Assembly (NCBI GenBank): GCA_019894815.1
Contig: JAGXNU010000002.1
Coordinates: forward strand, 1 to 37,971
Origin: Promethearchaeota archaeon
GTDB lineage: Archaea; Asgardarchaeota; Lokiarchaeia; Sigyniarchaeales; SOKP01
Reading direction: 5' to 3'
DNA length: 37,971 nucleotides
The notes under the pieces are model-generated. The model was given only the letters and a program-made list of their open reading frames with translations. It did no database searches and was not told the DNA's origin. Position numbers and translations under genes: made by a program. Position 1 is the first letter of the stretch; each line of letters opens with the position of its first letter. Shown here piece after piece: positions 22,612 to 37,971 of the stretch.

Positions 22612-22656
22612 AATTTATTAAAAGAAGAAAACAAAGATATCTTTTTATAGATTTTT

Positions 22657-22920
22657 CTAAAAGCCACCAGCGATGTGTGGAAGTATAGTAACGGCATCTG
22701 TTTCTCTAATAACGGTATCCTCATCGGCACGTTTGCCATTTACCAGTATTCCAAAGCATTTTCCCTCCAAATTAAGCTCTTTCAGGAGATCTTTAACTAA
22801 CATGCTCTTTTCTGGTTTAAATATTTCATAAATTCCCGTTTCTAATAGTTCATGAGTTTGTTTTATAGTATTACCACCAAATGCTAAATAATTTGAACTA
22901 TTATAATTAAAACTGTATTC
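22657..22920 (-). pseudogene. ThiS/MoaD-like beta-grasp reading frame lacking a canonical start; ends ...AGGF
   Basis: Hand translation between stops: EYSFNYNSSNYLAFGGNTIKQTHELLETGIYEIFKPEKSMLVKDLLKELNLEGKCFGILVNGKRADEDTVIRETDAVTILPHIAGGF. The only ATG is at 22803, leaving 48 aa. No GTG/TTG lies upstream. Confidence 0.4.
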
Positions 22921-23245
22921 CTATTTAAAATTATTTCCTATCCTATTAAAGGTGTTAATCCATTTATATTCTTAACAATAAATCAATTATTGGTAGTTAG
23001 AAAAGGCTGGTTTGAATTTTGAGCAAAAATTATCTGAAATAATATATTTTCAGTAAAATAAAAGGCTTTTTATGGTAACTTAAATTTTATTTCATAACGT
23101 TTAAATCCTATTAGTGGGTTGATCTTAAATACTTCAAGAGAGTTTTGTTGATTATAGAGATTACTTAGAAAAATTAAGAGATTTTATAGATCAAGGCGGA
23201 ATTAATAAGAATAATAAGGATATAAACCTAATTATAAATCAAGTA

Positions 23246-24775
23246 ATGGAAGAATCAGCAAATTTAGCTAATGATATTGCCGAAACGGGGGAATTTCTTG
23301 AAGCTGGAGAATTTCTGTATTCGGTCGCATCCTTAATTGAAGAAATAGATAATTCAAAATCATTAAAAATACTTGAATTAGTAGATAGATATTGGGAAAA
23401 ACAAATCTCTTCTTATAAACTTCAAGCTAAATTACACGAAATCGCTGAAATTTATATTCGCTTAGCGGATTTGCATGCTGATAAATTTAAAAATCAAAAA
23501 CTCGAAAGAAAAAATATTCGTAATAGTATTAATTTTTTAAAACAAGAAAGTAAATTATTAAAGGATTTTAACGAAATAAGGAAATTAGCTCAAAATTATC
23601 AAAATATCGCAGAATTATATCTTAAAATTTTAGATTATAAACGAGCTACTCGTTATTATGCATTTGTAATTGAAGTTTCAAAAAGTCTACATTATTTTGA
23701 TTTACTAGCATATTCTTATCAACAAATTGCTTCATGTTTTCAAGAATTAGATGATTACGATCGTTCTAATAATATAATTTTAGATGGTATCGAATATTTC
23801 CTCGATTTATTTGAGGAATATGAAGAAAAAAATAATAATTTGACTGTTGCGCAATTATCTCAAGTTTTGAGAAAACTTTACAAATTAATCGATGATAACA
23901 AACAATTTGTCAATTATTCTAAGAAGGAAGCGGGAGCTTATATAAATTTGGCTGAATATTTAGAAAAAAAACCCGAAAACTTTCAGAAAATAGCTACATT
24001 TTACAGAGGCGCTGCTCTTTGTTATCAAGAAATCGATAATAATCTAATTGAATCAGCCTCCTGTTTCGTATTAGCAGGCAATTATTCCGAAAAAATTGAA
24101 GATTATAACGAATCAGCAGTTAATTTTTTTAACGCAGCTGTTACATTTAAGGAAATGAATAATTTAGATATGACCTACAAGCATTTTATAAAAGCAGCTG
24201 ATAATTATTGGAAAGATGGTAATGTTAATGATTCAACAGAGTGCTATTTAAACGCATATGATATAGCGGTTGAAGGAGATTTAGAATATAACCAATATGG
24301 ATTATTTAACCAAATTGTGCGTGGATTGAGTATTATAGCGAAAGAAGGTTTAAAAAATAAGAAATTTTATACTGCCGCTACTTTAATATTGGAAAGCATC
24401 AAATTTTATCAGAAGCTTGATACAGCAAAGGATTTTCTCCTAAAAGAAATGGTAAGGAACGTTTATAAATATTATTATAAAGCAGCAAATTTAAAAGAAA
24501 TTGGTAAGTCACACATCGTTCAATCCTACGTTTTAGCAGCTATTTCTTCGATCTTAAATGGAAGAATTGATAAAGCTCGAGAGATAATATCAAAATTAAA
24601 TTCTACTGGAAGTACTGAAAGAAAATATAAAGAATTGGTTGAAACAATGATTATTTGGATAAATCAAGGAAAACAAATTGAATTTGAGAAATTCTCTTAC
24701 CCCCTTCAACGAATTATAGAAAATTCTGAAGAAATCATGTATCTTTTGCGTCTTTTTAAAGGTTACAAAATCTAA
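23246..24775 (+). CDS. TPR-like all-helical repeat protein (possibly SNAP-like)
   Basis: Repeated antiparallel-helix units with A/Y/L/N periodicity (AQNYQNIAELYLKILDYKRATRYY; HFIKAADNYWKDGNVNDSTECYLNAYDIA). Confidence 0.6.
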   Translation: MEESANLANDIAETGEFLEAGEFLYSVASLIEEIDNSKSLKILELVDRYWEKQISSYKLQAKLHEIAEIYIRLADLHADKFKNQKLERKNIRNSINFLKQESKLLKDFNEIRKLAQNYQNIAELYLKILDYKRATRYYAFVIEVSKSLHYFDLLAYSYQQIASCFQELDDYDRSNNIILDGIEYFLDLFEEYEEKNNNLTVAQLSQVLRKLYKLIDDNKQFVNYSKKEAGAYINLAEYLEKKPENFQKIATFYRGAALCYQEIDNNLIESASCFVLAGNYSEKIEDYNESAVNFFNAAVTFKEMNNLDMTYKHFIKAADNYWKDGNVNDSTECYLNAYDIAVEGDLEYNQYGLFNQIVRGLSIIAKEGLKNKKFYTAATLILESIKFYQKLDTAKDFLLKEMVRNVYKYYYKAANLKEIGKSHIVQSYVLAAISSILNGRIDKAREIISKLNSTGSTERKYKELVETMIIWINQGKQIEFEKFSYPLQRIIENSEEIMYLLRLFKGYKI

Positions 24776-24827
24776 TTCTTTTCGAATTATTTGATAATTT
24801 GGAGCAACAATTACATAGTGAATATTT

Positions 24828-25508
24828 ATGACAAACGTAAATAAAATTCTTGTTAGTTTTGATTTAGATTATACCTTAATATATAATAGTCAAGGTATTG
24901 TAAATTCATTCAATTACGCTCTAAATAAATACAATTTACCTCCGAAAAAGCCAAATGAAATTGAAAAAATGATTGGAGAACCTTTAGATCACATGTTCTC
25001 AGAGTTTTCTAGCATGGATCCAACAATTTTATCCTCAGCTTTTCGAGAGTTTTATAGTAGAAAAGGAATTTTTCAATCTCAACTAATACCAGGTGTCCAA
25101 AATATTCTTAAGATGTTAAAGAAACACAAATTCCAATTAGGAGTGATTACTTCTAAAAAGCAAGAAATAGCAGAGCAAATTATTCGATATTTAAAAATTA
25201 GAGACTATTTTGAGTATGTAATAGGAGAAACTCCTGAAAGAAAAACTTTAGGGAAGCTTGATCCATCATTAAAAGCAATAATATCTAACAAGTTTCCCGA
25301 GCATCAGGTCATTGTAGTTGGTGATCATCCAAAAGATGCAAAACTTTCCAATAATTTAGAATGCTTTTTTATTGGTGTTTTAACGGGTCATTACGGTAAA
25401 GAAGAACTCAAGAAGGAAAAGCCTAACAACTCCATAGTAGTCAATAGTGTTAATGAAATATCAATTGATCTTATTAAAAATCTCCTAAAAAAACGTAAAT
25501 TAAAATAA
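24828..25508 (+). CDS. HAD-superfamily phosphatase (PGP-like)
   Basis: Motif I FDLDYTL (DxDxT), motif II ITSK, motif IV VGDHPKD. Confidence 0.8.
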   Translation: MTNVNKILVSFDLDYTLIYNSQGIVNSFNYALNKYNLPPKKPNEIEKMIGEPLDHMFSEFSSMDPTILSSAFREFYSRKGIFQSQLIPGVQNILKMLKKHKFQLGVITSKKQEIAEQIIRYLKIRDYFEYVIGETPERKTLGKLDPSLKAIISNKFPEHQVIVVGDHPKDAKLSNNLECFFIGVLTGHYGKEELKKEKPNNSIVVNSVNEISIDLIKNLLKKRKLK

Positions 25509-25531
25509 AAAATAGAAAAAAAGATAGAGTA

Positions 25532-26989
25532 TTATTCCTTTTCCCAAGATTCGTATTCTTTCATAAATTCTTCTGGTTTCCATTGAGTATCCATGAATTT
25601 AGGAATACCAGAACTATCTCTTGGTCCTACTACAACAAAAGCATTTGCTTCATCTTCTAAAGCACCACTAATACGAGCAGCCATTCCCGGGAGAATTAAT
25701 ATTCGGTGCTTTACGTTATCAAAAGGTTTGAATTCATTTACTGCTTCTCCTATTCCACTAGCACTGAATTGACCTCCAGCAACTGCTGATTCAATACCAA
25801 TACCTTCAGTATCAGCTACTAATAACCAACAAGCAATATTAGCTCCTTGTAGATCTTGTTCAACAGGAATTTTTGTCATTCGATAATTACTTGTGACAAA
25901 AATTGGAGCCATATCTCCTGGTTCACCGACTTTATAAACACCTGGATCCACAGCTGGATATATCCTTGGATCACTATATACACTTTGCCTTAAAGTCATC
26001 AAAGCTAACAGTGCCCAAATATCATCTTTTTCTTGACCAGTATGCATTATAATAAGACTCGTTCCAATAGACTCCATGATCGCGCCCATGATTATTTCTT
26101 CAAATTGATGTCTCCACAGATCCTTTTTATCATCAACCTTAGTTTGCGCCCAATAAACTGCTGGTACACCCATAACTGGCCAACCTGCGTTCACATCTTC
26201 TTTATTAATAGCAGCTGTTCTCAATTTAATTATATTATCATAAGTTACAGCTAAATTACCAGGACCAAAGTAAGTTCCAGCATCTAATATAATTGATTTT
26301 GCTCCTAACTGTTGAAGTGTTGCACTGAGTGATACCAGTTCATCAATATTAGTTGAAACAGCAGCAACGGGTAAATTATTTTGAACTGCAAATGTTCCAA
26401 TTTGTTCCCAAGTATCCTTAGTTGCAGCATAAAGTAATGGATTTTTCTCTTTGATATCAGCAGCAGCAGCTAGAAGTATATCAGGATTTAAGCAACATAA
26501 AATAATAGGTAAATTTGATACGTCTGCTAGTTTTTTTGCAGCAAGCTTAAATTGTTCTTTATCTCCAGATACATTTCTTAATGCTATACCATTAACTTGT
26601 AAGACCTCTCCAATACGATTAATGGTTAAATCCGCTAAATATTTTACTTTTTGTTCCAAATCAGGGTCATCATCTGCAATTTCTATGAAAATTCCCGTTT
26701 CATTATAGTATGTTAATTGGTGACGCATTAAAACCTCCTCACCGCCAACTGTTACTGCTCTCTCTCCCGTGCCAATGATAACCGGTTTCTGAGGGGGAGT
26801 AATGAGTTTTATGAGTTTATTCCGTTTTTTAGCTTGCTTGGAGTCATTCATGAGGTGAGTACAGTCTTTTACATGGATCTTGCGTTCAAGCAAACCCGTA
26901 GCAAATGCCATGCACGTGTCGTAGCCACATTCCTTACAATTGGATTTATCCAATAAAGAATAAATGTCCAATGGTGATGGTCGGCCCAT
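25532..26989 (-). CDS. cdhE: Acetyl-CoA decarbonylase/synthase gamma subunit (corrinoid Fe-S protein large subunit)
   Basis: N-terminal Fe-S motif CKECGYDTCMAFA....C followed by a TIM-barrel-sized body. 485 aa. Confidence 0.8.
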   Translation of the reverse strand: MGRPSPLDIYSLLDKSNCKECGYDTCMAFATGLLERKIHVKDCTHLMNDSKQAKKRNKLIKLITPPQKPVIIGTGERAVTVGGEEVLMRHQLTYYNETGIFIEIADDDPDLEQKVKYLADLTINRIGEVLQVNGIALRNVSGDKEQFKLAAKKLADVSNLPIILCCLNPDILLAAAADIKEKNPLLYAATKDTWEQIGTFAVQNNLPVAAVSTNIDELVSLSATLQQLGAKSIILDAGTYFGPGNLAVTYDNIIKLRTAAINKEDVNAGWPVMGVPAVYWAQTKVDDKKDLWRHQFEEIIMGAIMESIGTSLIIMHTGQEKDDIWALLALMTLRQSVYSDPRIYPAVDPGVYKVGEPGDMAPIFVTSNYRMTKIPVEQDLQGANIACWLLVADTEGIGIESAVAGGQFSASGIGEAVNEFKPFDNVKHRILILPGMAARISGALEDEANAFVVVGPRDSSGIPKFMDTQWKPEEFMKEYESWEKE

Positions 26990-27092
26990 TATTTAATCAT
27001 CTCTCTCTTTAATTTGACTTTTCTTGATTTTATTATGAATATTTATGTTTAGAATTAATTATGAATTGTAATTAAAAATTTGGATTTTTACC

Positions 27093-27310
27093 AGAGAATT
27101 AGGGAGAAGGGCTGGAATGTTTTTTAAAAAGGAATGGAAAAACCTTTTGTGAAAAGCTTTTTAAAATGAAAACTATAGTGCAAAAGTCAAAAATTTATTT
27201 TTTTGAAAATTAGAAGAGAGAAATAGGGAGAAGAACTGCTTTTTAAAAAAGAAGGGGTAATTTTTTGCGAATGGATAAAATTTTATTTCAATCCTTCTTC
27301 CCATTCTCTC
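27093..27310. repeat. Purine-rich repeat family in the cdhE upstream region (two direct copies, one inverted)
   Basis: 27093-27137 AGAGAATTAGGGAGAAGGGCTG..TTTTTAAAAAGGAATGG. 27217-27257 AGAGAAATAGGGAGAAGAACTG..TTTTTAAAAAAGAAGGGG. 27293-27310 ccttcttcccattctctc is the reverse complement GAGAGAATGGGAAGAAGG. Confidence 0.6.
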
Positions 27311-27376
27311 AGCGAACCATTGAAAAATACTATTTATTATTTGAAACTGGTGTTTATAAAGACAACTCATTTTTAA

Positions 27377-27877
27377 TTAACACGTGATATCGCCCAAAAT
27401 CTCATTAATGAAGTATACATTTTCATCCCCAACCTCTGTGAGAAGTTGATGAGATAATGATCTTTTAAAACTCCAAATTTCAATCGTTTTCTCCAAATCT
27501 CGTAGTTTTCTGACAATTTCAATAAAATCTGAATCCCCTGAAACCAAAATTGCTTTATCATATATATCTTCACCAGCGAGCTCTACAACATCTCTGTAGA
27601 TGAAAATATCAAGCCCTTTTTGCATTTTTTTACCTTCTGCAATTATTTTTATCGGTCTCGCTTGAATTACATATCCCTGAGATGTCAAATATTTAAGGAA
27701 ACGTTTCTTCTTGGGATAAAGTTCCTCGGGAATGCCCATGTACATGAAGGCCCCTACTAGATGATCATCCCTTGTTAAAATCTCTTTAAATTTTTTATAA
27801 TCTATTCGAATTTGAAGATTTAACAAGTTATAAAATAAATTTGCGTGGTCAATGAAAATTATAGCCCTTTGTCTCAA
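27377..27877 (-). CDS. NYN/LabA-like (PIN-fold) domain protein
   Basis: IFIDHANL at the N-terminus and LVSGDSDF about 100 aa later are the conserved acidic motifs of the LabA/NYN family. TTG start. Confidence 0.7.
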   Translation of the reverse strand: MRQRAIIFIDHANLFYNLLNLQIRIDYKKFKEILTRDDHLVGAFMYMGIPEELYPKKKRFLKYLTSQGYVIQARPIKIIAEGKKMQKGLDIFIYRDVVELAGEDIYDKAILVSGDSDFIEIVRKLRDLEKTIEIWSFKRSLSHQLLTEVGDENVYFINEILGDITC

Positions 27878-27940
27878 CCTATTAGAACCCCGAAGTATAT
27901 TATTTTAGACACATTTTATTCTATAGATTGATATTTAAAC

Positions 27941-27980
27941 ATGGTGGATTTTTCAAAAATTGGAGCTTTTTACAATTAAA
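27941..27980 (+). repeat. Copy 1 of the three-copy motif (core TCAAAAATTGGAGCTTTTTACA)
   Basis: Core at 27953-27974, between the NYN gene start and the SWIM gene stop. Confidence 0.7.
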
Positions 27981-28029
27981 AAAAGATTTTTTTAAAAATA
28001 CCTCCTCGTTTAATAGATCTAACCTAAAC

Positions 28030-28668
28030 TTAACTCTTGCATTCAGAAATGTGTTTACAGACTTTTTTTCGGAATACAAATTGAGGGCATGTACATGTAA
28101 ATGAACCGTCGGCTTTCTGAGTTACTGTATAAACTTTACTTTTATCACTTGAACTGGCGATCTCCCATTGTTTTACGCCGCTTTCCTTGTCCTCCTTCTG
28201 AGGTTTAGCTGGATTTACTTGTTCTGATTTTAAATCCTTAAAAAATTCCTCGAGATCTGAAATTCCATGGTCTTTTGGGAGGATCTTTATTGGAAACTTC
28301 TCGTATTGGGAAGGGTTGTAATCAATTTGAGCAGCACCGTTTTTAAAAAACTTTTTTAATTTACAGGCGAATGGGAGTTTTTTATTTTTTTTTACATAAT
28401 CAACTAAACTCTTGCCCAGAATTTCCTTAACTTCATTTTTATCGGCGATATGAGAACCTTTATCTGTAATAACATTATACTTAATAGTTGGAAAATTTGT
28501 CTCTTCCATAATTTCCTTGTGGATAATTATATCATCTTTTTCTACTTCATAGTTCTCAATACCGCCTAACTTCATCAAGAAACCAAAACTAGAGGCGTGA
28601 ATGTGATGAAACCAATCGCCTCCTAAGTCATCATCTAATTTATTTAGATCAATTTTCATTTTAATCAT
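28030..28668 (-). CDS. SWIM zinc-finger protein with unassigned N-terminal domain
   Basis: C-terminal FTCTCPQFVFRKKVCKHISEC fits the SWIM CxCxnCxH signature. Confidence 0.65.
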   Translation of the reverse strand: MIKMKIDLNKLDDDLGGDWFHHIHASSFGFLMKLGGIENYEVEKDDIIIHKEIMEETNFPTIKYNVITDKGSHIADKNEVKEILGKSLVDYVKKNKKLPFACKLKKFFKNGAAQIDYNPSQYEKFPIKILPKDHGISDLEEFFKDLKSEQVNPAKPQKEDKESGVKQWEIASSSDKSKVYTVTQKADGSFTCTCPQFVFRKKVCKHISECKS

Positions 28669-28754
28669 TTTGTCATATTTTTGTCTTAAACGTTAGTAAT
28701 CGATGGATATTTTTAAATCTATATTATCTCCCATTTTTTTATAAGGATAGTAGA

Positions 28755-28800
28755 ATGTTGAATTTCTCAAAAAATTGGAGCTTTTATATCCAAATTTAAT
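28755..28800 (+). repeat. Copy 2 of the three-copy motif; also contains the likely promoter of the peptidase gene
   Basis: Core TCAAAAAATTGGAGCTTTTATA at 28767-28788. TTTTATAT lies about 25-30 nt upstream of the ATG at 28814, so the transcript could be leaderless. Confidence 0.7.
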
Positions 28801-28813
28801 ATCATTTACAGCC

Positions 28814-30025
28814 ATGAAAAAATCGGATTACATTTTGATTGCAGTCACAATTTTAGTATTCACTTTTGTATTAGCACCAATCATTATCTTTAATGACTCA
28901 TTGTATATAATAAAAGGGGGCTCAATGGAGCCGAATCTTTATCATGGAGATCTAGTTATTGTAATGGATAAAGAACCAGCAGACATTCAAGCGGGATATC
29001 AAGATGGCGACATTGTCGTAATTAAGGGACCTGAGTATTATACCGATCAAGGCGCGGAACCAGATTTCTGGGATCTACTTAATAATACTCAAATCATTCA
29101 TCGAGTAATTGACAAGAAACTCATTAATGGTACGTGGTATTTTCTAACTAAAGGAGATAATACTGCCATGATTGATGGTTCTATTCGAACAATATTTAAA
29201 TCAGAAGATTATTCTATATTCGAATATAACGAATCAAATGGAGTTTACATAACAAAAGATGCTATTCTCGGGATTGTAATATTCAAAATTCCCTTCATTG
29301 GATATTTGCAAGAATATGGATTATTAATTTCTCTCTTTCTTATAATTTCAATGCTTTTATTCCAATTATTTTCTAAAAAATGGCAGTTTCAGTTATTTAG
29401 AAGCAAGAGAGGTGAAAAAAGATTGGTAAAATCCAAATCTTACTTAATTTTTTCAGGGATTTGCTTGATAGTTTTGTTTTTACAGATAATATTGATCCAA
29501 AATCCATTTTTCCTAAATATGACTAACAATTCCATGAATCCAACCCTAAGCCAAAATGATTTAGTAATCTCAACAACTAAAGATCCATCTGAGATTTTGG
29601 TTGGGGATGTTGTAATCATTAAAAGTGCCCATTATTTTTATGATAGGGGGTTCCCTCCCATACTTTGGAGTAATTTCCCCAATAATTCTTATATTATTCA
29701 CAGAGTTGTAGATAAATTGAACGTGAATGGAACATGGCATTTCATGACTAAAGGAGATAATAGTGGTTATGAAATTGATGGAATGTATAGAACGGTTTCA
29801 TCAAGTCCAGGTTATATATTATTTGAATACAATAAATCTAATATCATTTATCTTCCTCAAGAGGCAATTATCGGAGTAGTTGAGTTTAAAATCCCGTTCA
29901 TTGGATTTTGGAAGGATAATTTTCTCTTCAGTGTATCCATCATTATTTCCCTACAGGTTTTAATTATAATTTTTAAAAAGACAAACATGAAAATTGAGAT
30001 TACAATTAGAGAAACCAATAAATAA
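28814..30025 (+). CDS. Tandem-duplicated archaeal/ER-type signal peptidase I (two S26B modules in one ORF)
   Basis: Each half has a TM anchor, a Ser box (GGSMEPNL / NNSMNPTL), a His box (IIHRV in both) and TKGDN in both. An identical 16-mer actaaaggagataata occurs at 29157 and 29747. The ATG at 28814 is preferred over the TTG at 28775. Confidence 0.75.
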   Translation: MKKSDYILIAVTILVFTFVLAPIIIFNDSLYIIKGGSMEPNLYHGDLVIVMDKEPADIQAGYQDGDIVVIKGPEYYTDQGAEPDFWDLLNNTQIIHRVIDKKLINGTWYFLTKGDNTAMIDGSIRTIFKSEDYSIFEYNESNGVYITKDAILGIVIFKIPFIGYLQEYGLLISLFLIISMLLFQLFSKKWQFQLFRSKRGEKRLVKSKSYLIFSGICLIVLFLQIILIQNPFFLNMTNNSMNPTLSQNDLVISTTKDPSEILVGDVVIIKSAHYFYDRGFPPILWSNFPNNSYIIHRVVDKLNVNGTWHFMTKGDNSGYEIDGMYRTVSSSPGYILFEYNKSNIIYLPQEAIIGVVEFKIPFIGFWKDNFLFSVSIIISLQVLIIIFKKTNMKIEITIRETNK

Positions 30026-30132
30026 ACAAAATGTTTATTTTTGTAAAAAAAACTGATGTTTTTTTCTAATTTACCTTAAAGTAAATCGAAATGTATTTAT
30101 GACGCCAATCATTTAAAAACACAGAAACAAAA

Positions 30133-30867
30133 ATGAAGACAGAAACAAAAAAAGACGACCGAGTCTCAAATAACAAAGACCGAGAGTCGTGCCAATCCAC
30201 TATTAATCCCACCAGCGAGTGGAAGGGAAGAACAATAGAAATTGATGACGCTGGGACGGGTGATCTCGTCGGAAATGCCTTTATAGGCTTTCGTGATACG
30301 AGCACGGGAAAGATTATTTATCAATCGGTTCCAGTTGACCTTTATAAAGAAGACGAGGATAAGAAGAAACACATTCTAGAACCGAAGAAACACATTCTTA
30401 AGGTAGTTATTAAAGCTCTTAGGATACTTAATCACAACGAGAGTGATAGAATCCTTCTATGTCGTGGTAATTGCTTTGATCTTGTAAGAGAATATTTTGA
30501 CGAGAATGAAATTTACTACGAGGCCGCCGTGGTTGAAGGAGTACTTCAGGAGGCCGTGGAAGGTAGATTCATTCAACACCTTAGAAAGTTAGGAGTAAGT
30601 TCGAAAAAACTAACAACCGAAGCAGGTTTCCAGAGATACTTTGTCTTGTTTAACTGGGTGTGCCAAGATTTTCCAAATCGGGAGCGCTACGTTAAGACGG
30701 GCTTTCCATCATGGCCAAAGAAATGGCGAAGGATCGCATTGGAGCGATACCAAAAGTCTGAGAACGGTCAGACTCAAAGAAGAGAGTTAATCAAGCGAAG
30801 AGCGAATGAAATCTATAACATCATGCTTGAGGAACCTATTTCCGCAAGAAACACTAAAAGTAGATAA
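30133..30867 (+). CDS. Hypothetical protein, compositionally foreign (GC-rich); DDAGTGDLVG motif
   Basis: Hand-counted lines give 37-50% GC against about 18-30% in the flanks. IEIDDAGTGDLVGNAFIG loosely recalls the RNase HII DEAGRGxxxGP motif. In-frame 21-nt duplication (KKHILEP KKHILK). Confidence 0.55.
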   Translation: MKTETKKDDRVSNNKDRESCQSTINPTSEWKGRTIEIDDAGTGDLVGNAFIGFRDTSTGKIIYQSVPVDLYKEDEDKKKHILEPKKHILKVVIKALRILNHNESDRILLCRGNCFDLVREYFDENEIYYEAAVVEGVLQEAVEGRFIQHLRKLGVSSKKLTTEAGFQRYFVLFNWVCQDFPNRERYVKTGFPSWPKKWRRIALERYQKSENGQTQRRELIKRRANEIYNIMLEEPISARNTKSR

Positions 30868-31085
30868 GATTTTTAGTATTTAGAGAATAAAACTGTATTA
30901 ATGTTAGAAAAGCAGAATCTTAAACTTAATTGTAATTAAATTTGCTACATTCTACTTATACTACAAAAATACCTGCTTATTAGACACTCGAAGCTTTTTT
31001 TATAGTTATTTTATTCTTATCTTTTTTTTATTATATAAAGTTATATAGACCAATTTTGATAAAACTAAAGAAAATATTAGTATTA

Positions 31086-31122
31086 TCAGCATTAGAAAAG
31101 CCATATTTACTATTAATGCTGA
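31086..31122 (-). terminator. Possible hairpin terminator downstream of the 78-aa gene
   Basis: 9-bp stem TCAGCATTA / TAATGCTGA with a 19-nt loop, followed on the minus strand by a T-rich stretch. Confidence 0.3.
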
Positions 31123-31200
31123 ATCAAGGGATAACCTTTTCTTAGAAAAGAGTTGAAATCCATTTTTATTTATTAAATTATTTATTAGTTAATAAGGAAT

Positions 31201-31437
31201 TTAGTCGTAATCCTTTATGAACTGAACTTCTTTGCCAACTTTTTTAAGGTACCCTAAATAGCACGCTTGATTAAAATGGGCATAAAATTTTTGTTCAATT
31301 ATATCTTCTTCTTCAGCAAATTCTTTAAAATCAGAAAGAGACATTTTCCCATCTACGCTATAAGTTTTAGCGATTCTAATTAAGGTCTTTACGTTATTAT
31401 TTAGATAAATTTTTCTTTCTGTCATTTTTGAGTTCAT
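31201..31437 (-). CDS. Small hypothetical protein (78 aa)
   Basis: Clean ORF with ATG. The segment SLSDFKEFAEEEDIIEQKFYAHFNQACYLGYL faintly resembles helical DNA-binding repeat modules. Unverified. Confidence 0.45.
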   Translation of the reverse strand: MNSKMTERKIYLNNNVKTLIRIAKTYSVDGKMSLSDFKEFAEEEDIIEQKFYAHFNQACYLGYLKKVGKEVQFIKDYD

Positions 31438-31520
31438 CTTTGATAATAATTATTTTAATATAGAAGTTTTGAATTTCAATTTATCAAATCCTATTCTATC
31501 GAGTAAGAAGTTCTTTTTCG

Positions 31521-31566
31521 AAAAAAAAAGAAAAAAAAAGTATGAAGCCATACTCCCCGGGGTATA
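31521..31566 (-). terminator. Dyad plus double T9 tract terminator after the 39-aa ORF
   Basis: On the minus strand the stop is followed by the ATAC..CCCCGGGG..GTAT and GTATG/CATAC dyads (31540-31565), then CT9CT9 (31521-31540). Oligo-T tracts are the known archaeal termination signal. Confidence 0.5.
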
Positions 31567-31567
31567 A

Positions 31568-31687
31568 TTAAGGAGTTCCACCGCCAGGAAAATATCCGAC
31601 GGCGTATGAAGTTGAACTTAAAGTGATTCCAAGAGAAATCACGCTTAAGGCTAACATTATTACAACAAAAATTCTATTTTTATCCAT
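31568..31687 (-). CDS. Unannotated 39-aa hydrophobic (signal-peptide-like) micropeptide
   Basis: Hand translation: MDKNRIFVVIMLALSVISLGITLSSTSYAVGYFPGGGTP. Charged N-terminus, hydrophobic core and a Gly/Pro tail. Same strand as the giant ORF and 240 nt downstream of it. It has its own terminator. Confidence 0.45.
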   Translation of the reverse strand: MDKNRIFVVIMLALSVISLGITLSSTSYAVGYFPGGGTP

Positions 31688-31927
31688 TTCTAAATTACCT
31701 CACTTAATAATAGCACCAATTATTTAGTGCTATTGATTACTTTAGAAAAGTGTATTTAAACTTCGATTTTTTAAAAATAACTATTTAAACTCCTAAGATA
31801 TAATTTTTCATGCTTTAGGAGTAAAGAAAAAGAATGAAGGATATAGAAATTTTATTTTTATATACGTAATGCGCTTAATATTATATTTTATATATGGACC
31901 CCCATATCTATTCTCATGTTATTTTTA

Positions 31928-34900
31928 CTATTCTGAATTTAATTTGGGATATTGTGGCGTGAAATTTTCACCAAAAAGTTTATGATTCATGTAAATTTTG
32001 TCAAAATCATTCCATTTCAAGTTGAGTAATGGGTTATAGTTATTTTTCAAATCGACTCCCTTAAACACCTCAGCAAGCCATTCTTTAGTCTTGAACAGTT
32101 CACTGAAAAAAATGAAATGTTCAATATTCAAATGATCAAGCACGTCAAATATAACATCCACATAGGGACTTATTTCCATTTCAGGTAATTTTAGCTTTAT
32201 ATACAACCCATTGTTGAAAGTGATCAATTCTTCAAAAGATTTAACAAAAAATTCACCCTCTATTTCCCTAATGGTTACCACATTAAAGAACTGGAATAAT
32301 TTTATAAGAATTTTAACTTGTTCTTCATTAAGGTCAGGTATGATAAAGTTTAAGCATTCCCTTAGCTTTAAATTTTTAAGTTTCAGTGATGGATGGATTA
32401 ATTTATTTTTTAAAAGCCTTAAAACAACCAGTTCTAATTTTGCTCCTTTTTTTGTGCCCCAGAAGCTCTTAATATTAGATCTCCTCTTGAATATTTTTAA
32501 TAAATCTTTAAATTTGGCATTTGCAGGTGAGATATATGAATCAATGTGAGTCTTTTCAAAATTCAAAGTTCTTAAGTTTGGGTTATAGGGATTATATGAC
32601 GGATCAAATAGAACTTTTTGAACATATTGTGTAAAGAGATTATAATCAATTCTCCATCCATCTGGCGTGATGTTTTTCGAGAAATCGAAAATTTCATGAG
32701 TTTTTTTGATAGAAAATAAACAATACTCATTAATACTTTTCTTTGAGTATAGGAGCCAATTGAGATACGCCTTATTCGGTGTGTTATACGGGAAAATATA
32801 TTTAACCAAAAAGCTATATGTATCAAATCTTGTCGAATTAAATCTTATAGAGATGAATGTATTTATCAGAAGTAATTCGGGGTTTATTGCATTGAAATCT
32901 GATGGTTGAAAATACAAGTAATATTTCTGTAACCCGAATTCTTGAAGGATTGGCTTAACACGAATGGAATTTATATATTGAAAGAAGGGGTTTTCTCTTA
33001 AATCTTGATATACTTTTGAATTTAGCAAGTAATATTCTAATCGTTTATTAAAATCTAATAATCTGTCTAATTGATTCAAGTCAAAATGTTGAGGTTCCAT
33101 CATTCTTTTTTGGTTCAATTCATCTATAAAGGATTGTAAGTTGGTTTTATTGAGCCAAAAATGATCGGTATTGTTAGGTGCTTGAATATTAAAGGGAGTT
33201 AAATTTTTTCCAAATCGATCTCTAATCGATTTCTTGAATTCTGAATAAAGATCGGGTGTATAAAAAAAAGTGCCCTCGATAAAATCATAAAAATTTTTGC
33301 GTGAAAATGCTATATAAAATCCTTGATGGATATATCGTGTAAAAATAACTAAATCAGCTTTTAACAGATGATGCACAATCGAATAGAATTCATATTTTTC
33401 CTTCATGTTCATTCCTTGAATTCCAAATCGACAAAAAATAAAATTCTGATCATCCAAAACTTCGTTAAGTTCATAATAATTATAGTGTGGGACTATGTGT
33501 GATATTTTTTCTATGAAATTTAAAACTCGTTTTGTATTTTTGGCCAATAAAATGAATGAAATTGTTGAATATAATACTGTAATTAATGAATCAATCATTT
33601 TTGGAGATATAATAGGGGGAATTGAAGTTGCAAAATCTTCAAGCCTATTCTCGACCTCTACACTTGTTATGTTTCTCAATTGGGAATCCTTATATATCAA
33701 ATCTAATTTCTCTTCTTTTACAGTATAAATCCTTGTTGAAGTTTCTGGATTTTCTAGAATGTATTTTATTGAATTTAAATCATAAATTTTTAATTCCTCA
33801 CAAATTGATAAATATTCATGGTAAAGCTTGAATGCTTGATATTCTTCATCAAAAAGATTTCTATTGCGAAAATACAGGGGAATAAGTTCAATTATCAGTA
33901 AATTTCGTACTCGTTGATTATTAAGATTAAGATTTTCATGAAATGACGTTGAGATTCCCTTTTTTTTAACAAAATCCTTAAAAGAGACAGGATCGGTTAT
34001 TGATGGATTTCTCTTTAAGATTTCCCTGGCTAATTTTAAAGATTCTACAATCTGTTCCATGTATTCCTTAAATGTAAAGAAACTATATCTCTGATTATTT
34101 TGGAGTAAATTGAAAAACTTTTTTTTTAGATCTGGTGATTCAGAAAACCGAGAAGAAAACCGATCAACCGCGTTTCTTAACTGAACTATAACATTTTTTT
34201 GATAGGAGATCTCTTTTAATAAATCTGATTTTAAATCTTTCAGGGTAGATTCACGTCTTTCAAATCCAAATCCAGTAAAAGATAAATTTCTTACTCTATC
34301 TAATATTATAAAATCAAGTAAAGAAAGCTTCTTCAGAACTACTTCTTTCTGATAATTAGACTTGAAAATGAGCTCTAAGTCTTTGCGATATCCTTTCCGT
34401 TGAGAGTGTAAGATCTTGTCCATTTCGGTAAGCTTCCTATAATAATTAAGATTCAAGTAGTAGTGCATGGTCTCCGGTTCATAAAGTGAAATTTCCTGGA
34501 AGAATCCAGTATCTTTGAAAAACTCCAAAGACTGCAATAGATCCCCTACATATGAATTAGGAATGATAATATACCCAAAGAATTCCCGAGCATATCCAAA
34601 TGAAGAAAGTTGGGACCAAAAGAAAAAGGGCAAGTTCCTCATGAACACTTTAATATTTCTCCATCTACAGCTTGGATGAAACCGAATGTATATAATATAG
34701 ATTGCCATGTTAATAGTAAACCAATCCAAGTGATAATTAGGCGCACAGAAAGTATGTTTATTTAGCCATCTCACGTTAGATGAAAATTTACGAAGACTCA
34801 AGTCCGTTGTAATTAATCCACTTTCTTTAAATTTTTTGAAGTAATCTTGATACTCAAGTAAAGCTCGATAATTTTTGACGGAAAAAAATATTTCTTTAAG

Positions 34901-35536
34901 AACTTTTATGGTTTCAAGAATATCATCTTTTTGAAGATATAATTTGATTCGATTTATGAATTCAATTACGATGATACCAAAAATGGTGTTATTGAGTAAA
35001 TCTGGCTCGAGGGAGTTAATCAACTGGAAAAGAGTAGGTATGACGTTTTCTTTCGTATCGGGATCTTCTAACTTAACGAATTTTATCAACATATCGCCAT
35101 TATTTGCGAAATGTGGTTGAAAATTCTCATGACTTCTAATAATTTTCTTCCATTCTGTAATGTTATTCAAAGTTTCGAGTTCAGATTCTATTATCATGTA
35201 AACTACAAATTGCACTTGAATGCTCTTTCGATTTTTAGGAATAATGAATAATTTATAACATTCTCGTAATAGAATTTGAGGAATAAATTTTATACACCTA
35301 AGTGAAATATGAATTTCATTCAAAAAATTGGAGCGTTTTACACCAAATTCAAATGTTTCGCTTAAATTTAAGTTTTCTTCATCTAATATGTCAATCTTGA
35401 TATTAGTTTCATGGGGCTTGCTTTCCAGAGCTTCTTCAATATTTAACATTAGTGAATTAAAGATATCTTGCACTTTTTCAAGATTCTTCCCTTTTGAGAG
35501 GGAATTTAATAAATTTAGATCAATACCTAATCCCAT
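31928..35536 (-). CDS. 1202-aa ORFan, no recognisable catalytic or nucleotide-binding motif
   Basis: Uninterrupted 3.6-kb frame in a genome where random frames close quickly. No Walker A, DEAD, HNH, DxD or CxxC pairs found by eye. Recurrent aromatic-rich beta-like stretches (YIIYIRFHP, GYIIIPNSY, KYYLYFQPSDF, LNFIIPDLN, LYIKLKLPE) alternate with helical stretches. Confidence 0.8.
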   Translation of the reverse strand: MGLGIDLNLLNSLSKGKNLEKVQDIFNSLMLNIEEALESKPHETNIKIDILDEENLNLSETFEFGVKRSNFLNEIHISLRCIKFIPQILLRECYKLFIIPKNRKSIQVQFVVYMIIESELETLNNITEWKKIIRSHENFQPHFANNGDMLIKFVKLEDPDTKENVIPTLFQLINSLEPDLLNNTIFGIIVIEFINRIKLYLQKDDILETIKVLKEIFFSVKNYRALLEYQDYFKKFKESGLITTDLSLRKFSSNVRWLNKHTFCAPNYHLDWFTINMAIYIIYIRFHPSCRWRNIKVFMRNLPFFFWSQLSSFGYAREFFGYIIIPNSYVGDLLQSLEFFKDTGFFQEISLYEPETMHYYLNLNYYRKLTEMDKILHSQRKGYRKDLELIFKSNYQKEVVLKKLSLLDFIILDRVRNLSFTGFGFERRESTLKDLKSDLLKEISYQKNVIVQLRNAVDRFSSRFSESPDLKKKFFNLLQNNQRYSFFTFKEYMEQIVESLKLAREILKRNPSITDPVSFKDFVKKKGISTSFHENLNLNNQRVRNLLIIELIPLYFRNRNLFDEEYQAFKLYHEYLSICEELKIYDLNSIKYILENPETSTRIYTVKEEKLDLIYKDSQLRNITSVEVENRLEDFATSIPPIISPKMIDSLITVLYSTISFILLAKNTKRVLNFIEKISHIVPHYNYYELNEVLDDQNFIFCRFGIQGMNMKEKYEFYSIVHHLLKADLVIFTRYIHQGFYIAFSRKNFYDFIEGTFFYTPDLYSEFKKSIRDRFGKNLTPFNIQAPNNTDHFWLNKTNLQSFIDELNQKRMMEPQHFDLNQLDRLLDFNKRLEYYLLNSKVYQDLRENPFFQYINSIRVKPILQEFGLQKYYLYFQPSDFNAINPELLLINTFISIRFNSTRFDTYSFLVKYIFPYNTPNKAYLNWLLYSKKSINEYCLFSIKKTHEIFDFSKNITPDGWRIDYNLFTQYVQKVLFDPSYNPYNPNLRTLNFEKTHIDSYISPANAKFKDLLKIFKRRSNIKSFWGTKKGAKLELVVLRLLKNKLIHPSLKLKNLKLRECLNFIIPDLNEEQVKILIKLFQFFNVVTIREIEGEFFVKSFEELITFNNGLYIKLKLPEMEISPYVDVIFDVLDHLNIEHFIFFSELFKTKEWLAEVFKGVDLKNNYNPLLNLKWNDFDKIYMNHKLFGENFTPQYPKLNSE
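35308..35354 (+). repeat. Copy 3 of the three-copy motif, inside the 5' part of the giant ORF (antisense to it)
   Basis: Core TCAAAAAATTGGAGCGTTTTACA at 35320-35342. Extended match to copy 2 (GAATTTC..TCAAAAAATTGGAGC.TTTTA.A.CCAAATT.AA). Confidence 0.7.
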
Positions 35537-35847
35537 TATCCTTAATCCGTTTTGAGTACATTATTTATCTCAGTTTATCCTATAAAATTAGACCTATTAA
35601 CATATAAATTTTACTTATAGCTCAAAATTAAGAAGAAAAAAAGAAAAATAAAATCCATAAGATATTGTTTAAAATGAGTTAATTAAGAGGGCGAAATACA
35701 GATTTTTTTTTCCATTCTAAGAATGAATTAAATGAGAACTATAAAAACTCCCTATGAAATTTTTACCCTTCAACTAGTTTTTATAAAAAAGTAAGATTAG
35801 AACCATTTTTCACAAAAAATATAACATTTTAATTATTTAATTAAATA

Positions 35848-37266
35848 ATGGAAAATCAAAATCGCTTGGATCAGAGTCTCTTTAATCCAAAACATATTGC
35901 GTTCATTGGAGCTTCAGAGAAGAGTACTTTAGGATCGATGTTATATCTAGTAGCATTTAAGGAGTCTCAATGGGCATCCACATTTTATCCTGTAAACCCA
36001 AAATATGAAAAAATAATGGATTGGAAATGTTATTCCTCAGTATTAGACATTCCTTTCCCGGTTGATACGGCTTACATATCTGTTAAAACCAAGATTATCC
36101 CAAGTGTGCTAATTGAGTGTGTAGAGAAAAAAATATCATGGGTAATTATTTTTTCATCTGGGTTCTCTGAAACTGGAGATAAAGAGGGATTTAAATTAGA
36201 GAATCATATAAAAGAGATTATTAAGGACTCCAATACACGTGTTATAGGCCCAAATTGTTTAGGTCCATTCAATGGAGAAAATGGAATGGCATTCTCTTTT
36301 ACCCCTAATAAAGGGATTTCTGGAGGAATATCCTTCATGTCTCAATCTGGAGGGCATCTTACTCAACTATTGGATGTTGGAGCTAAACGTGATTTTAGAT
36401 ATCGATATGGCGTATCTTTTGGAAATCAAGTTAATTTAAACGCTATTGATTTTTTACGATTTTATCACAATGATATTAAAACAAAGCTCATTGCGGCTTA
36501 TCTTGAGTCATTTGGCTCTGGTTATGGGAATGATTTTTATTTAGAATTGAAAGCGACCACTAAAAGTAAACCAGTAATAATTTGGAAAGGTGGTTATACT
36601 AACGATGGATCACGCGCTGCATTTTCTCACACGGGTGCAATGGCAAGCGAAATTAAATTATGGAACGTGCTTGCAAAACAAGCAGGAGCGGTCATTGTAC
36701 GTAATAATATTGAGTTTTGGAATGTTATTAAAACATTTGAATTGTTGGTACCACAATTTTTACCCAAAGGAAGAAAAGTGGGGATAATCACCCCGGGAGG
36801 GGGATCCTCCGTAAATGCAACAGATTTACTTGCGGTAAATGGATTGAAAGTACCGGAACTAACATTAGAATCGCAAAAAAAGATATCCGAAATTTTACCA
36901 AAAGAAAATGTTAACGTAAAGAATCCAGTTGATCTTGGTGCCGTTGGATTTGTCCTAGATATCTTCATTAGATGTATTGAAGTAGTAGCCAAAGATCCTA
37001 TTGTTGATATATTATTAATTCCATTATGGCCTCATTTTTTGTACAGTCACGTTTTTACCAAAATGATCAAGACGTTAAAAAAAAGTGGTAAACCTTTTGC
37101 GTTCAGTTTACCTAGTATTTCAGATTCTTTAGATGTCGCAAAGAAGTTTTCTAATGTTCAAAAAATACTACACAAACAAAGAGTTTTATATTTTTTCAAT
37201 CTGAGCGAAGCAGCCAGGAGTTTATCATTATTATGTGATTATTCTGAATACTTGCAATCACATTAG
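35848..37266 (+). CDS. ADP-forming acyl-CoA synthetase alpha subunit / CoA-binding protein
   Basis: CoA-binding start IAFIGAS, GPNCLG, SQSGG, and the phosphohistidine loop FSHTGAMAS typical of NDP-forming acyl-CoA synthetases. Confidence 0.75.
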   Translation: MENQNRLDQSLFNPKHIAFIGASEKSTLGSMLYLVAFKESQWASTFYPVNPKYEKIMDWKCYSSVLDIPFPVDTAYISVKTKIIPSVLIECVEKKISWVIIFSSGFSETGDKEGFKLENHIKEIIKDSNTRVIGPNCLGPFNGENGMAFSFTPNKGISGGISFMSQSGGHLTQLLDVGAKRDFRYRYGVSFGNQVNLNAIDFLRFYHNDIKTKLIAAYLESFGSGYGNDFYLELKATTKSKPVIIWKGGYTNDGSRAAFSHTGAMASEIKLWNVLAKQAGAVIVRNNIEFWNVIKTFELLVPQFLPKGRKVGIITPGGGSSVNATDLLAVNGLKVPELTLESQKKISEILPKENVNVKNPVDLGAVGFVLDIFIRCIEVVAKDPIVDILLIPLWPHFLYSHVFTKMIKTLKKSGKPFAFSLPSISDSLDVAKKFSNVQKILHKQRVLYFFNLSEAARSLSLLCDYSEYLQSH

Positions 37267-37269
37267 TAA

Positions 37270-37614
37270 TCAAGTAATCTTTTTTACCACTTTTTTCAAA
37301 TATTTCCTCATGAAATACCTTTCAAGCATGCAGTAGTCAATTATTTGATTGTTACTTAGCAATTTATCTTTATTATTTGATAAGGAAAGATGTATTTCCA
37401 TGACTTTGTGAAGTATATCATATAGATCCTCATCAAGTGGTTGTAAATTGACATATTTAAAATTCTGATTAAATTGTTCAGAAATTAGCATGATTTGAGT
37501 TAAATCATCTCTTTTAAGAGGTGGATCATTTGGAGCCTTAATAGAAGAGTTTTGGTTAAGGAGATAGTCTCCTTCTAATGAACCCCCAATTATTTTCACT
37601 TTTCCAGAACTCAT
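37270..37614 (-). CDS. Hypothetical protein (114 aa)
   Basis: ORF with ATG and no competing frame. No motif recognised. Confidence 0.4.
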   Translation of the reverse strand: MSSGKVKIIGGSLEGDYLLNQNSSIKAPNDPPLKRDDLTQIMLISEQFNQNFKYVNLQPLDEDLYDILHKVMEIHLSLSNNKDKLLSNNQIIDYCMLERYFMRKYLKKVVKKIT

Positions 37615-37921
37615 ATTGAGAGACCTCTTAACATTATTTTTTGAATAAATTTGTCAAATTTGCCCCAAAATCAACGCATAATTCTTTTTTTGTCGGTATT
37701 TAGAGCTACGTTAAAATACTTTTTCAAGGCACTGAGATATTAACGCTAATAATTCAATTTTACATATACTATTATTAACTCTATATTAAACTTCGTTTGA
37801 GACACATATTAACGCATTAATAATCCACGAAATAGTCAAAATCTAACAAGGACCAAGATCAAATTTAAAATGAATTAAAGAGATCAATAAATTAAATTAA
37901 TAATTATCAAATGAATAAAAA

Positions 37922-37971
37922 ATGTCTTTTATAACAGGCCTTAAGGAACTATTTAGAAAACCATTCTACAT
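37922..37971 (+). CDS. Start of an ORF running off the window (MSFITGLKELFRKPFY...)
   Basis: ATG at 37922, open to the end of the window. Only 16 codons are visible, so no call is possible. Confidence 0.25.
   Translation, partial: MSFITGLKELFRKPFY

Follow-up and report, generated by a model that had tools for sequence, protein, structure and literature searches.

Introduction

Asgard archaea are the closest known relatives of eukaryotes. This paper concerns a block of seven genes (positions 27377 to 35536) in the genome of an Asgard archaeon, Promethearchaeota archaeon (assembly GCA_019894815.1, contig JAGXNU010000002.1, positions 1 to 37,971; here the window refers to this whole stretch of 37,971 nucleotides). 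The block lies between the core gene cdhE and a gene for an ACD-type acyl-CoA synthetase (acd), and it encodes an NYN/LabA-like PIN-fold protein, a SWIM-type zinc-finger protein, a tandem signal peptidase, and four products that are named here by their size, p244, p78, p39, and the giant protein of 1202 amino acids (aa). The closest described counterparts of the block as a whole are chromosomal plasticity zones. Those of its individual products are the NYN/LabA-like ribonucleases (PF01936), which include cyanobacterial LabA and the NYN domain of eukaryotic MARF1; the SWIM proteins (PF04434), found in MuDR transposases and SWI2/SNF2 proteins; the archaeal/eukaryal signal peptidase I (Sec11/S26B, TIGR02228); the RNase H-like superfamily, with the retroviral integrase core, RuvC/YqgF, and RNase HII; and NirDL/AhbAB together with the Lrp/AsnC regulators. 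NirDL has a doubled Lrp/AsnC-like fold, and the Lrp/AsnC regulators combine a helix-turn-helix with a ferredoxin-like RAM domain.

The block resembles chromosomal plasticity zones in its conserved flanks (cdhE and acd), in the gene-sized indels between close strains, and in containing a direct-repeat cassette, the remnant of a truncated gene, and a tract whose ancestry is foreign. It differs from them in lacking an integrase, a transposase, or a tRNA target, and most of its residents (giant, p244, and NYN) are not strain-specific cargo but chromosomal genes with wide conservation. Based on the comparisons summarized below, the block is probably a lineage-specific mosaic that arose where the chromosome is prone to rearrangement, between cdhE/NYN and acd, and not one functional system.

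Gene Content and Conservation of the Block

All seven open reading frames (ORFs) were found where an earlier interpretation of this DNA, the sequence-only reading, had placed them, and the AT-rich spacers and mixed strands that it described are present. The G+C content of the window is 31%, and its closest relatives are Promethearchaeota (Lokiarchaeia-type) Asgard metagenome-assembled genomes (MAGs). All comparison sequences, given here as L numbers, are metagenome contigs or MAGs, in which per-genome copy numbers are uncertain. Pfam searches bore out the identities of both flanks: cdhE (25532..26989, minus strand), the corrinoid Fe-S subunit of CODH/ACS, matches PF03599 (CdhD, 5e-96) with an N-terminal PF04060 domain (FeS, 3e-11), and the gene on the right (35848..37266, plus strand) encodes an ACD-type CoA ligase with CoA_binding_2 and Succ_CoA_lig domains. 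At E-value cut-offs of 0.01 for Pfam and 0.05 for NCBIfam, p244, p78, p39, and the giant protein have no match. The Pfam scan revealed no integrase or transposase domain, as the sequence-only reading had noticed, and a wider test for a mobile element or genomic island gave no recombinase domain, no tRNA, and no repeats bounding the whole block; the searches with ARAGORN and Rfam found neither tRNA genes nor Rfam families within it.

The sequence-only reading had proposed the seven genes as one undescribed system, and it had named individual conservation of the genes without co-localization in other genomes as the pattern that would speak against this. That pattern was found. The seven genes occur together only in the genus of the window; elsewhere, the giant gene pairs with a gene of the major facilitator superfamily (MFS), and p244 pairs with an NYN gene of a different clade (NYN-B). 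Among 84 loci with a giant homologue, the SWIM, tandem peptidase, p244, p78, and p39 genes were seen nearby only in close relatives of the window, with the exception of p39 in L059 and of a SWIM-only gene in L007, and the combination of peptidase, p244, and p78 with the giant gene is restricted to L001, L002, L085, and L120. Outside the clade of the window, none of 75 p244 loci contained giant, SWIM, p78, or tandem peptidase genes; in L103, a distant S26 gene with a single domain is located 2.3 kb upstream. A nuclease-type association, which had also been suggested, does exist, but it consists of p244 and NYN-B across Asgard phyla and not of the gene set of the window.

The SWIM Cassette and Its Direct Repeats

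The 212-aa SWIM-type zinc-finger protein (28030..28668, minus strand) is encoded on a cassette of about 815 bp between the NYN and the tandem peptidase genes. Its assignment as a SWIM finger stands on the CxC...CxH signature, and C192, C194, C204, and H206 are conserved in the family as a CxCxnCxH metal-binding motif, but the Pfam threshold is not reached (16.5 bits vs. the PF04434 cut-off of 19.6). The protein is thus like the described SWIM proteins in its C-terminal finger and unlike them in its sub-threshold score, in its 160-aa N-terminal domain, for which no match was found, and in its location on a tiny cassette on which no transposase is recognizable. An HUH-type transposase was considered for the N-terminus (HHIH) and rejected, as just one of the histidines is conserved.

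A private three-copy motif of 40 nt had been reported for the block. Three copies are indeed present, but the core is 16–22 nt long: AAAAATTGGAGCKTTT occurs three times at no more than one mismatch, where 0.05 occurrences are expected, and the triple is unique within the window (no other 9-kb stretch contains one) and absent from all 12 shuffles. Two of the copies form a direct repeat that brackets the SWIM gene. The left copy, of about 20 bp (TTTTTCAAAAATTGGAGCTTTT, 27949..27970, plus strand), and the right copy (TTTCTCAAAAAATTGGAGCTTTT, 28763..28785, plus strand), which overlaps the listed TTG start of the peptidase ORF, are both kept in L001. The third copy is part of the giant coding sequence and encodes the conserved stretch FEFGVKRSNFL; this copy has not been conserved in L001 and is probably due to chance.

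The cassette is variable between close relatives. In L120, NYN is followed by a single copy of the repeat and then by the peptidase gene without any SWIM gene, which represents the empty site; in L002, the SWIM gene is decayed and its first 61 codons are left. The SWIM family comprises 25 clusters with 49–100% identity, distributed over at least six different contexts: between NYN-A (the NYN clade of the window) and the tandem peptidase gene as in the window; 3 kb from a 25%-identical giant paralog (L241); between an NYN/1087-aa gene pair and a gene for a 1115-aa helicase (L239); beside a SIR2_2 gene (L248); among unnamed small genes (L246); and at a further unrelated locus (L238). A TATA-like box and the motif GTTTAAGACAAAAATA, which resemble a promoter or 5′ untranslated region, accompany the SWIM gene across these contexts. 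A search of viral contigs gave no SWIM homologue.

Three of these settings have features of their own. In L239 (1209–9625), genes for an NYN protein (173 aa), a 1087-aa protein without Pfam match, the SWIM homologue, and a 1115-aa Helicase_C protein form a same-strand cluster that looks more like a conflict module than the block of the window does; homology of the 1087-aa protein to the giant protein was ruled out by a hidden Markov model (HMM) search. In L248 (1528–4713), the SWIM homologue (66% identical) lies 1 kb downstream of a gene with a SIR2_2 domain, a domain that is common in defense systems. In L241 (1–6627), a very divergent giant paralog (about 25–28% identical to all others) is followed by an ORF for a small FCS-like zinc finger, then by Rad51-like and TPR genes, and lastly by the SWIM homologue, so that both zinc-finger types are found near a gene of the giant family.

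Structural Variation and History of the Region

The region is structurally variable, and in addition to the SWIM indel the variation includes a GDPD indel, a truncated helicase gene, and a divergent tract of 6.4 kb. In L001 and L245 a GDPD gene, which in L001 encodes 515 aa, lies between p244 and p78, and close relatives carry one or two such genes. L273 is 99.75% identical to the window over 31194–37971 and then continues into GDPD genes. At the same place, the window has an AT-rich spacer between p244 and p78 (30868..31200) that is likely a deletion scar; a 72-bp remnant within it (31072–31143) keeps 80% similarity to the GDPD region.

The 78-aa protein had been regarded as a gene of its own. 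The ORF is present, but it is the tail of a helicase gene: the segment 31201..31509 (minus strand) is the 3′ remnant of a gene for a 721-aa helicase of superfamily 2 (SF2), with 84% identity to residues 617–721 of the 721-aa protein in L250, and the p78 ORF corresponds to the last 78 codons (31201–31437). The break point (residue ~617, position 31509) is identical in L002 and L085. The ratio of nonsynonymous to synonymous substitutions (dN/dS) of p78 is about 0.08–0.18, which indicates purifying selection, and p78 therefore appears to be a retained stand-alone domain and not junk; it may represent a domesticated C-terminal domain of the helicase. L250 is 99.7% identical to the window over 18030–31512 and then carries the complete 721-aa SF2 helicase (DEAD/ResIII/Helicase_C), which ends in p78. 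In at least 15 metagenome contigs (about ten with the full-length gene), the helicase gene adjoins a radical-SAM gene and never p244, and L250 is therefore best explained as a recombinant or as an assembly chimera through the helicase repeat. The helicase was also considered as a conserved partner of p244 or of the giant protein and was rejected, being absent from the other loci.

Identity to the sister contig L001, calculated in 300-bp bins, revealed a tract of divergent ancestry (29100..35400). The window and L001 are 95–100% identical at 23.1–28.8 kb and at 35.4–37.8 kb, and 75–88% identical at 29.1–35.4 kb, and one border of the tract is located within the peptidase gene, the other within the 5′ end of the giant gene. 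In comparisons with relatives other than L001, identity is even across the whole region, and the arrangement of the window is reproduced by the independent contigs L251 and L273. The simplest reading of these identity profiles would be a homologous exchange of the 6.4-kb tract with a more distant relative; in MAG contigs, an assembly artifact is also possible. Further upstream, 900 bp (24000–24900) are 100% identical to L001, with differences of 3–5% in the neighboring bins, a sign of further recent recombination or of shared assembly input.

The order of events that led to the present block can be reconstructed tentatively from these comparisons. The older arrangement, kept in other genera, would be cdhE-(NYN-A)-(MFS)-giant-acd. 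In the clade of the window, the MFS partner would then have been lost and the giant gene inverted, after which a segment with the tandem peptidase, p244, and the 3′ end of the helicase gene would have been placed between NYN-A and p39/giant. The 815-bp SWIM cassette may have been inserted later, with a duplication of about 20 bp; GDPD genes would have been gained or lost between p244 and p78; and the 6.4-kb tract would have been exchanged with a more distant relative.

p244 and Its NYN and Zinc-Finger Neighbors

p244 (30133..30867, plus strand) had been described as a GC-rich foreign gene. It is a true compositional outlier, with a G+C content of 0.414 (0.412 at third codon positions, GC3) compared with 0.322 ± 0.028 (0.252 ± 0.046) for 26 other ORFs of the window, an excess of about 3.3 standard deviations in G+C and 3.5 in GC3, for which the imported 6.4-kb tract may be part of the explanation, not the full one. 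It is not evidently foreign: p244 has 583 homologues, and the 120 matches listed are 68–91% identical, including proteins of Thor- and Hodarchaeota. A further 138 distant relatives, obtained with HMMER among 50%-identity representatives, share residues 34–208 and include Bathyarchaeota and one Firmicute. No match to p244 was found in Pfam, NCBIfam, or PDB sequences, and when 68 members of the family were searched against Pfam at E ≤ 1, no consistent assignment emerged, just single weak matches to Pox_A22 and to a ZSWIM RNase-H-like model.

Structure prediction placed p244 in the RNase H-like fold. The model (pLDDT, predicted local distance difference test, 90.3) contains a five-stranded mixed sheet in the order beta-beta-beta-alpha-beta-alpha-beta-alpha, as is required of this fold, and its Foldseek matches were retroviral integrase catalytic cores (probability 1.0, E-values down to 5.6e-5, template modeling (TM) scores of 0.3–0.46). 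Strand 1 ends in the conserved pair D38-D39 (the IDDAGTG motif); C110-R-G112 after strand 4 and Q139/E143 on the next helix are conserved as well, and four cysteines are invariant in the Asgard group. p244 thus shares with the RNase H-like superfamily the core topology, the placement of D38/D39, and an acidic residue, E143, on the helix after strand 5. The stretch IDDAGTGDLVG resembles the DEAGRG motif of RNase HII and the DPGxxxxG motif of RuvC. p244 differs from the superfamily in having no sequence-level match, in its low TM scores, in its four invariant cysteines, and in its acidic set: D38, D39, and E143 are conserved, but the position after strand 4, where an acidic residue is expected, is occupied by an invariant Cys-Arg-Gly. 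Judging from fold, conserved residues, and neighborhood, p244 may be a metal-dependent nucleic-acid enzyme of RNase H-like fold, and it would normally act alongside a nuclease of the NYN-B type and a small zinc-finger protein.

The NYN gene of the window (27377..27877, minus strand) was correctly identified by the sequence-only reading, with a PF01936 match of 72.1 bits (E 8.7e-20) against a gathering cut-off of 24.2. Neighbor-joining analysis separated the NYN proteins into two deep clades, A beside cdhE, to which the gene of the window belongs, and B beside p244; an NYN gene also adjoins cdhE in L023, L043, and L059. The catalytic-type residues D9, D89, and D95 and the S-G-D-x-D motif are invariant in both clades, and NYN-A is accordingly a predicted RNA nuclease. 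In its domain match and its SGDxD-type acidic residues the protein is like the NYN/LabA-like ribonucleases; it differs from them as a single-domain protein of 166 aa without LOTUS/OST-HTH or another partner domain, and Asgard archaea have two deep paralogs with different fixed neighbors, cdhE and p244.

The sole recurrent neighbor across the 75 p244 loci is an NYN gene. In 29 of them, Thor, Hod, and Hermod contigs included, it is no more than 5 kb away, and in about 20 loci it follows p244 immediately and on the same strand. In the reverse search, p244 was found within 5 kb in 28 of 82 NYN-B loci, including contigs of Thor-, Odin-, Hod-, and Hermodarchaeota. About 19 loci also have a gene for a small zinc finger (CxxC...FCSxxC, with a weak DUF7576 match) within 5 kb of p244, usually just upstream, and in distant relatives C-terminal zinc fingers are fused to the p244 domain. 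The conserved ORFs on both strands upstream of p244 were considered as a possible non-coding RNA, for which Rfam and ARAGORN were empty; they consist of the real zinc-finger gene and an antisense shadow ORF. The distance between p244 and NYN-A, a paralog of its usual partner, is 2.3 kb in the window, and the NYN-B gene of the sister MAG is on another contig without p244. Since the NYN gene of the window belongs to clade A and NYN-B is elsewhere, p244 appears to have left its usual partner in this genus and to have landed near a paralog.

These relationships bear on a narrower proposal, in which the sole real sub-module of the block is a nucleic-acid processing trio of p244, NYN-A, and the SWIM protein that has re-formed in the window, with the rest as bystanders. 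We regard this as possible but rather doubtful. The zinc finger/p244/NYN-B neighborhood is kept across Asgard phyla, distant homologues fuse the p244 domain to zinc fingers, both NYN clades keep their catalytic residues, and p244 of the window is 1.5 kb from a zinc-finger gene and 2.3 kb from NYN-A, with NYN-B elsewhere in the sister MAG. Against the trio, NYN-A was beside cdhE before p244 arrived (L023, L043, and L059), and the SWIM gene is dispensable, being absent in L120 and decayed in L002. Moreover, the usual FCS/TRASH-like finger, of which the window contains no homologue, is not related to that of the SWIM protein; the genes are on opposite strands with the peptidase gene in between; and at more than half of the p244 loci an NYN gene is missing within 5 kb.

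Several individual homologues of p244 are of interest in themselves. In P0292, a distant homologue of 575 aa, an insert of about 350 residues with a weak LAGLIDADG_3 match splits the motif (DDSGWG, insert, SLVGG); the insert resembles an intein and would occupy the putative active-site hairpin of the RNase-H fold. In P0250 and four members of its cluster (Hermodarchaeota, 442–450 aa), the p244 domain is N-terminally fused to an isopentenyl phosphate kinase (AA_kinase, 2.4e-43), which has no obvious link to a nuclease role. A 70%-identical p244 is found in L094, labelled as a Nanopelagicaceae bacterium, and a 74%-identical partial NYN-B in L236, labelled as a Thermoplasmatales chromosome; both are probably due to mis-binning, and otherwise to lateral transfer.

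The Giant Protein, Its MFS Neighbor, and p39

The giant protein (31928..35536, minus strand) had been labelled an ORFan. This label does not apply, as database searches gave 88 homologue clusters from Loki-, Thor-, Hod-, and Helarchaeota, nearly all about 1200 aa long and alignable from end to end with 26–88% identity. None of the 88 clusters has a name or a Pfam domain. A scan of one genome per species gave 78 loci, with two or three paralogs in several MAGs. The family evolves fast, with about 33% identity where cdhE keeps about 72%.

The AlphaFold model, based on 44 sequences, has a pLDDT of 86.5 and a predicted TM score of 0.85. With domain boundaries taken from the DSSP string and not from a domain-wise search, it contains four ferredoxin-like beta-alpha-beta-beta-alpha-beta units (residues ~277–362, ~655–730, ~865–946, and ~1056–1140), each with helices ahead, and long extra helical regions in the chain. 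The sole meaningful Foldseek match was a local one, to the siroheme decarboxylase NirDL (4ch7; probability 1.0, TM score 0.45 by target and 0.15 by query), and no global match was found in PDB or in the viral BFVD; rows for AcrB in the Foldseek output were discarded as porter-subdomain noise (TM score 0.08). The similarity to NirDL/AhbAB and to Lrp/AsnC is thus at the level of the fold only, in the local NirDL match and the four units that follow helices, and the giant protein differs from these proteins in its length of about 1200 aa and in the lack of a global match and of profile similarity. An hhalign comparison with E. coli Lrp gave a probability of 0.5%; comparison of the internal modules with each other by hhalign detected no sequence repeats; the PDB profile search was empty; and a Pfam search with 14 relatives at E ≤ 1 gave nothing consistent.

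To describe the neighborhoods of the family, ORFs were called and clustered in 85 loci. The commonest neighbor is a gene for an MFS transporter (about 400 aa, PF07690), which is found within 5 kb in 47 of the 85 loci, mostly adjacent and on either strand; no MFS homologue is present anywhere in the 38-kb window. The wider surroundings elsewhere contain Trm5/TYW2, archaeosine tRNA-guanine transglycosylase, ribosomal protein L15e, and DUF371 genes. cdhE and/or acd flank the giant gene in 17–20 loci, usually in the order cdhE-(NYN)-MFS-giant-acd, with acd adjoining the giant gene in about 20; relative to these loci, the giant gene of the window is inverted. Because the same core genes flank it in these other loci, the giant gene appears to be an old resident of this neighborhood and not cargo.

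Two further features of these loci were observed. The strand of the MFS gene flips between otherwise syntenic cdhE-MFS-giant-acd loci (L016 vs. L020, L023 vs. L047), which points to repeated single-gene inversions. Genes for Arf/Ras/Roc-type small GTPases adjoin giant paralogs in some lineages (L005, 13949–14452; L007), and Ras-family genes are also, after NYN, the commonest other family near p244 (20 of 75 loci); both may just reflect the abundance of GTPase genes in Asgard genomes.

The 39-aa micro-protein p39 (31568..31687, minus strand; MDKNRIF...GYFPGGGTP) is encoded 3′ of the giant gene; a basic N-terminus is followed by a single hydrophobic helix and an end of the form PGGGxP. The micro-protein is kept in L001, L002, L085, and L059, under moderate constraint (dN/dS about 0.3–0.6). 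In L005/L060, a lineage that likewise has no adjacent MFS gene, another giant paralog is flanked by two similar peptides that end in GGP. Because p39 lies downstream of the giant gene in all four of its loci and similar peptides accompany the paralog of L005/L060, p39 tracks the giant gene and not the peptidase gene.

By its fold and neighborhood, the giant protein would be a cytoplasmic multi-domain protein composed of Lrp/AsnC-like, ferredoxin-type ligand-binding modules, and it may act with a membrane partner, usually the MFS transporter and here perhaps p39. The stronger proposal that p39 replaces the missing MFS protein, so that the giant protein and p39 form a functional unit at the membrane in this lineage, is unlikely in our judgment. 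The adjacency of MFS genes on either strand in 47 of 85 loci is in its favor, as is the occurrence of GGP-ended single-helix peptides beside the giant gene in two lineages without MFS (the clade of the window with L059, and L005/L060). However, these are just two independent cases, and their arrangements differ, downstream on the same strand in one and upstream and divergent in the other; the peptides are so short that their similarity could be convergent; the giant model has no membrane segment; and many giant loci without MFS have no such peptide.

Mosaic, Defense Island, or Export Module

Some observations weigh against a mosaic of unrelated genes. The order of the block is kept across relatives at about 80% DNA identity, and recent co-regulation is possible. 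The proximity of p244 and NYN would occur by chance with a probability of less than 1% by a rough estimate, so that the two may be functionally coupled, and the SWIM protein perhaps stands in for the usual zinc finger beside them; this proximity is the strongest argument that part of the block still works together. Among the six contexts known for the 212-aa family, two (the window type and L241) place the SWIM gene within about 3.5 kb of a gene of the giant family, and a separate 70-aa SWIM-only gene is located 1.3 kb from the giant gene in L007; this proximity suggests more than chance, as a weak signal. Finally, assembly chimeras in MAG contigs could mimic some of the junctions, that of L250 especially.

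The sequence-only reading had also considered a conflict or defense module. Spelled out, the block, or a core of NYN, SWIM, and giant, would be an island with a nuclease as effector, the zinc-finger or giant protein as sensor, and a variability driven by an arms race. The comparisons make this very unlikely. Searches of the seven products against PADLOC-DB 2.0 gave generic matches of the NYN protein, to an NYN model (1.6e-16) and to HEC-09 (3.5e-07); at E ≤ 0.001, five other products had no match and p78 had a marginal one (Cyclase model, E 0.001, 16.6 bits). The literature on Asgard NYN proteins and on Asgard defense islands yielded nothing specific to these families. Besides the NYN matches, a defense island would be favored by the SWIM homologues beside SIR2_2 (L248) and in the NYN/1087-aa/SWIM/1115-aa helicase cluster (L239), by a central tract far more divergent than its flanks, by the gene-sized indels, and by the fast evolution of the giant family relative to cdhE. 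However, giant and p244 are widely conserved and elsewhere have housekeeping surroundings that include ribosomal genes and genes for tRNA modification; the linkage of NYN-A to cdhE is stable across long distances; p244, which ranks with the most conserved Asgard proteins, shares in the divergence of the tract, which argues for imported ancestry and not for diversifying selection; and no SWIM homologue was found in viral contigs.

The tandem peptidase (28775..30025, plus strand) is a tandem-duplicated signal peptidase I of the archaeal type, as the sequence-only reading had recognized, with a TIGR02228 (S26) score of 88.9 bits against a cut-off of 51.85 over two matched stretches. Its halves are 43% identical, and each contains a hydrophobic anchor and the GSMEP/NSMNP, IIHRV, and GDN boxes. 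The protein agrees with the archaeal/eukaryal signal peptidase I in passing the curated cut-off and in the Ser/His/GDN boxes and anchor of both halves, and it differs in the fusion of two complete units in 416 aa, a form seen, like its position beside p244, only in the genus of the window. It is predicted to be a membrane signal peptidase. In the segment 28775–28813, the listed TTG start lies inside the direct repeat of the SWIM cassette, and to judge from the sequence and its translation the ATG at 28814, 13 codons downstream (MKKSDYILIAV...) and ahead of the hydrophobic anchor, is the likelier start.

A processing and export module of peptidase and secreted micro-peptide, in which cleavage of p39 after ...SYA would release a GGG-rich peptide of about ten residues, is scarcely credible: p39 does resemble a signal peptide (basic N-terminus, hydrophobic core, A-x-A-like site), both peptidase halves keep their catalytic motifs, and the genes are 1.5 kb apart, but p39 follows the giant gene in L059 without a peptidase gene, GGP-ended peptides flank another giant paralog again without one, the peptidase gene adjoins p244 and is on the opposite strand to p39, and p39 is under just moderate constraint. 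The preferred explanation of the block remains a mosaic whose members have separate histories and separate usual partners.

One small ORF was noticed at the left margin of the block. It encodes 65 aa between cdhE and NYN (27173..27370, minus strand) and gave no Pfam or family match; tblastn detected it with 96% identity in L001 and as a partial 78% match in L002, so that it is a possible small gene kept in close relatives only.

Significance for Asgard Archaea

As a system the block is ordinary, a variable patch of the chromosome, and it carries two cautions: the absence of a Pfam match together with an odd base composition does not make a gene an ORFan or foreign, and adjacency within one genus does not make a system. 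The interesting leads, all of them uncharacterized, are the neighborhood of zinc finger, RNase-H-fold protein, and NYN, the pair of giant protein and MFS transporter (or micro-peptide), and the tiny SWIM cassette. We tentatively propose, as a possibility rather than an expectation, that the first two represent undescribed Asgard-wide partnerships: p244 with NYN and a zinc finger, and the giant protein with a membrane partner, either an MFS transporter or a micro-peptide. If this is true, p244, about 70% identical across Asgard phyla, would be a new RNase-H-fold enzyme in a nucleic-acid processing module, the giant protein would have a new architecture, and the SWIM unit of 815 bp would represent a minimal mobile gene cassette of a new kind. 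The block thereby points to p244 and the giant protein as families without assigned function that are conserved across Asgard archaea.

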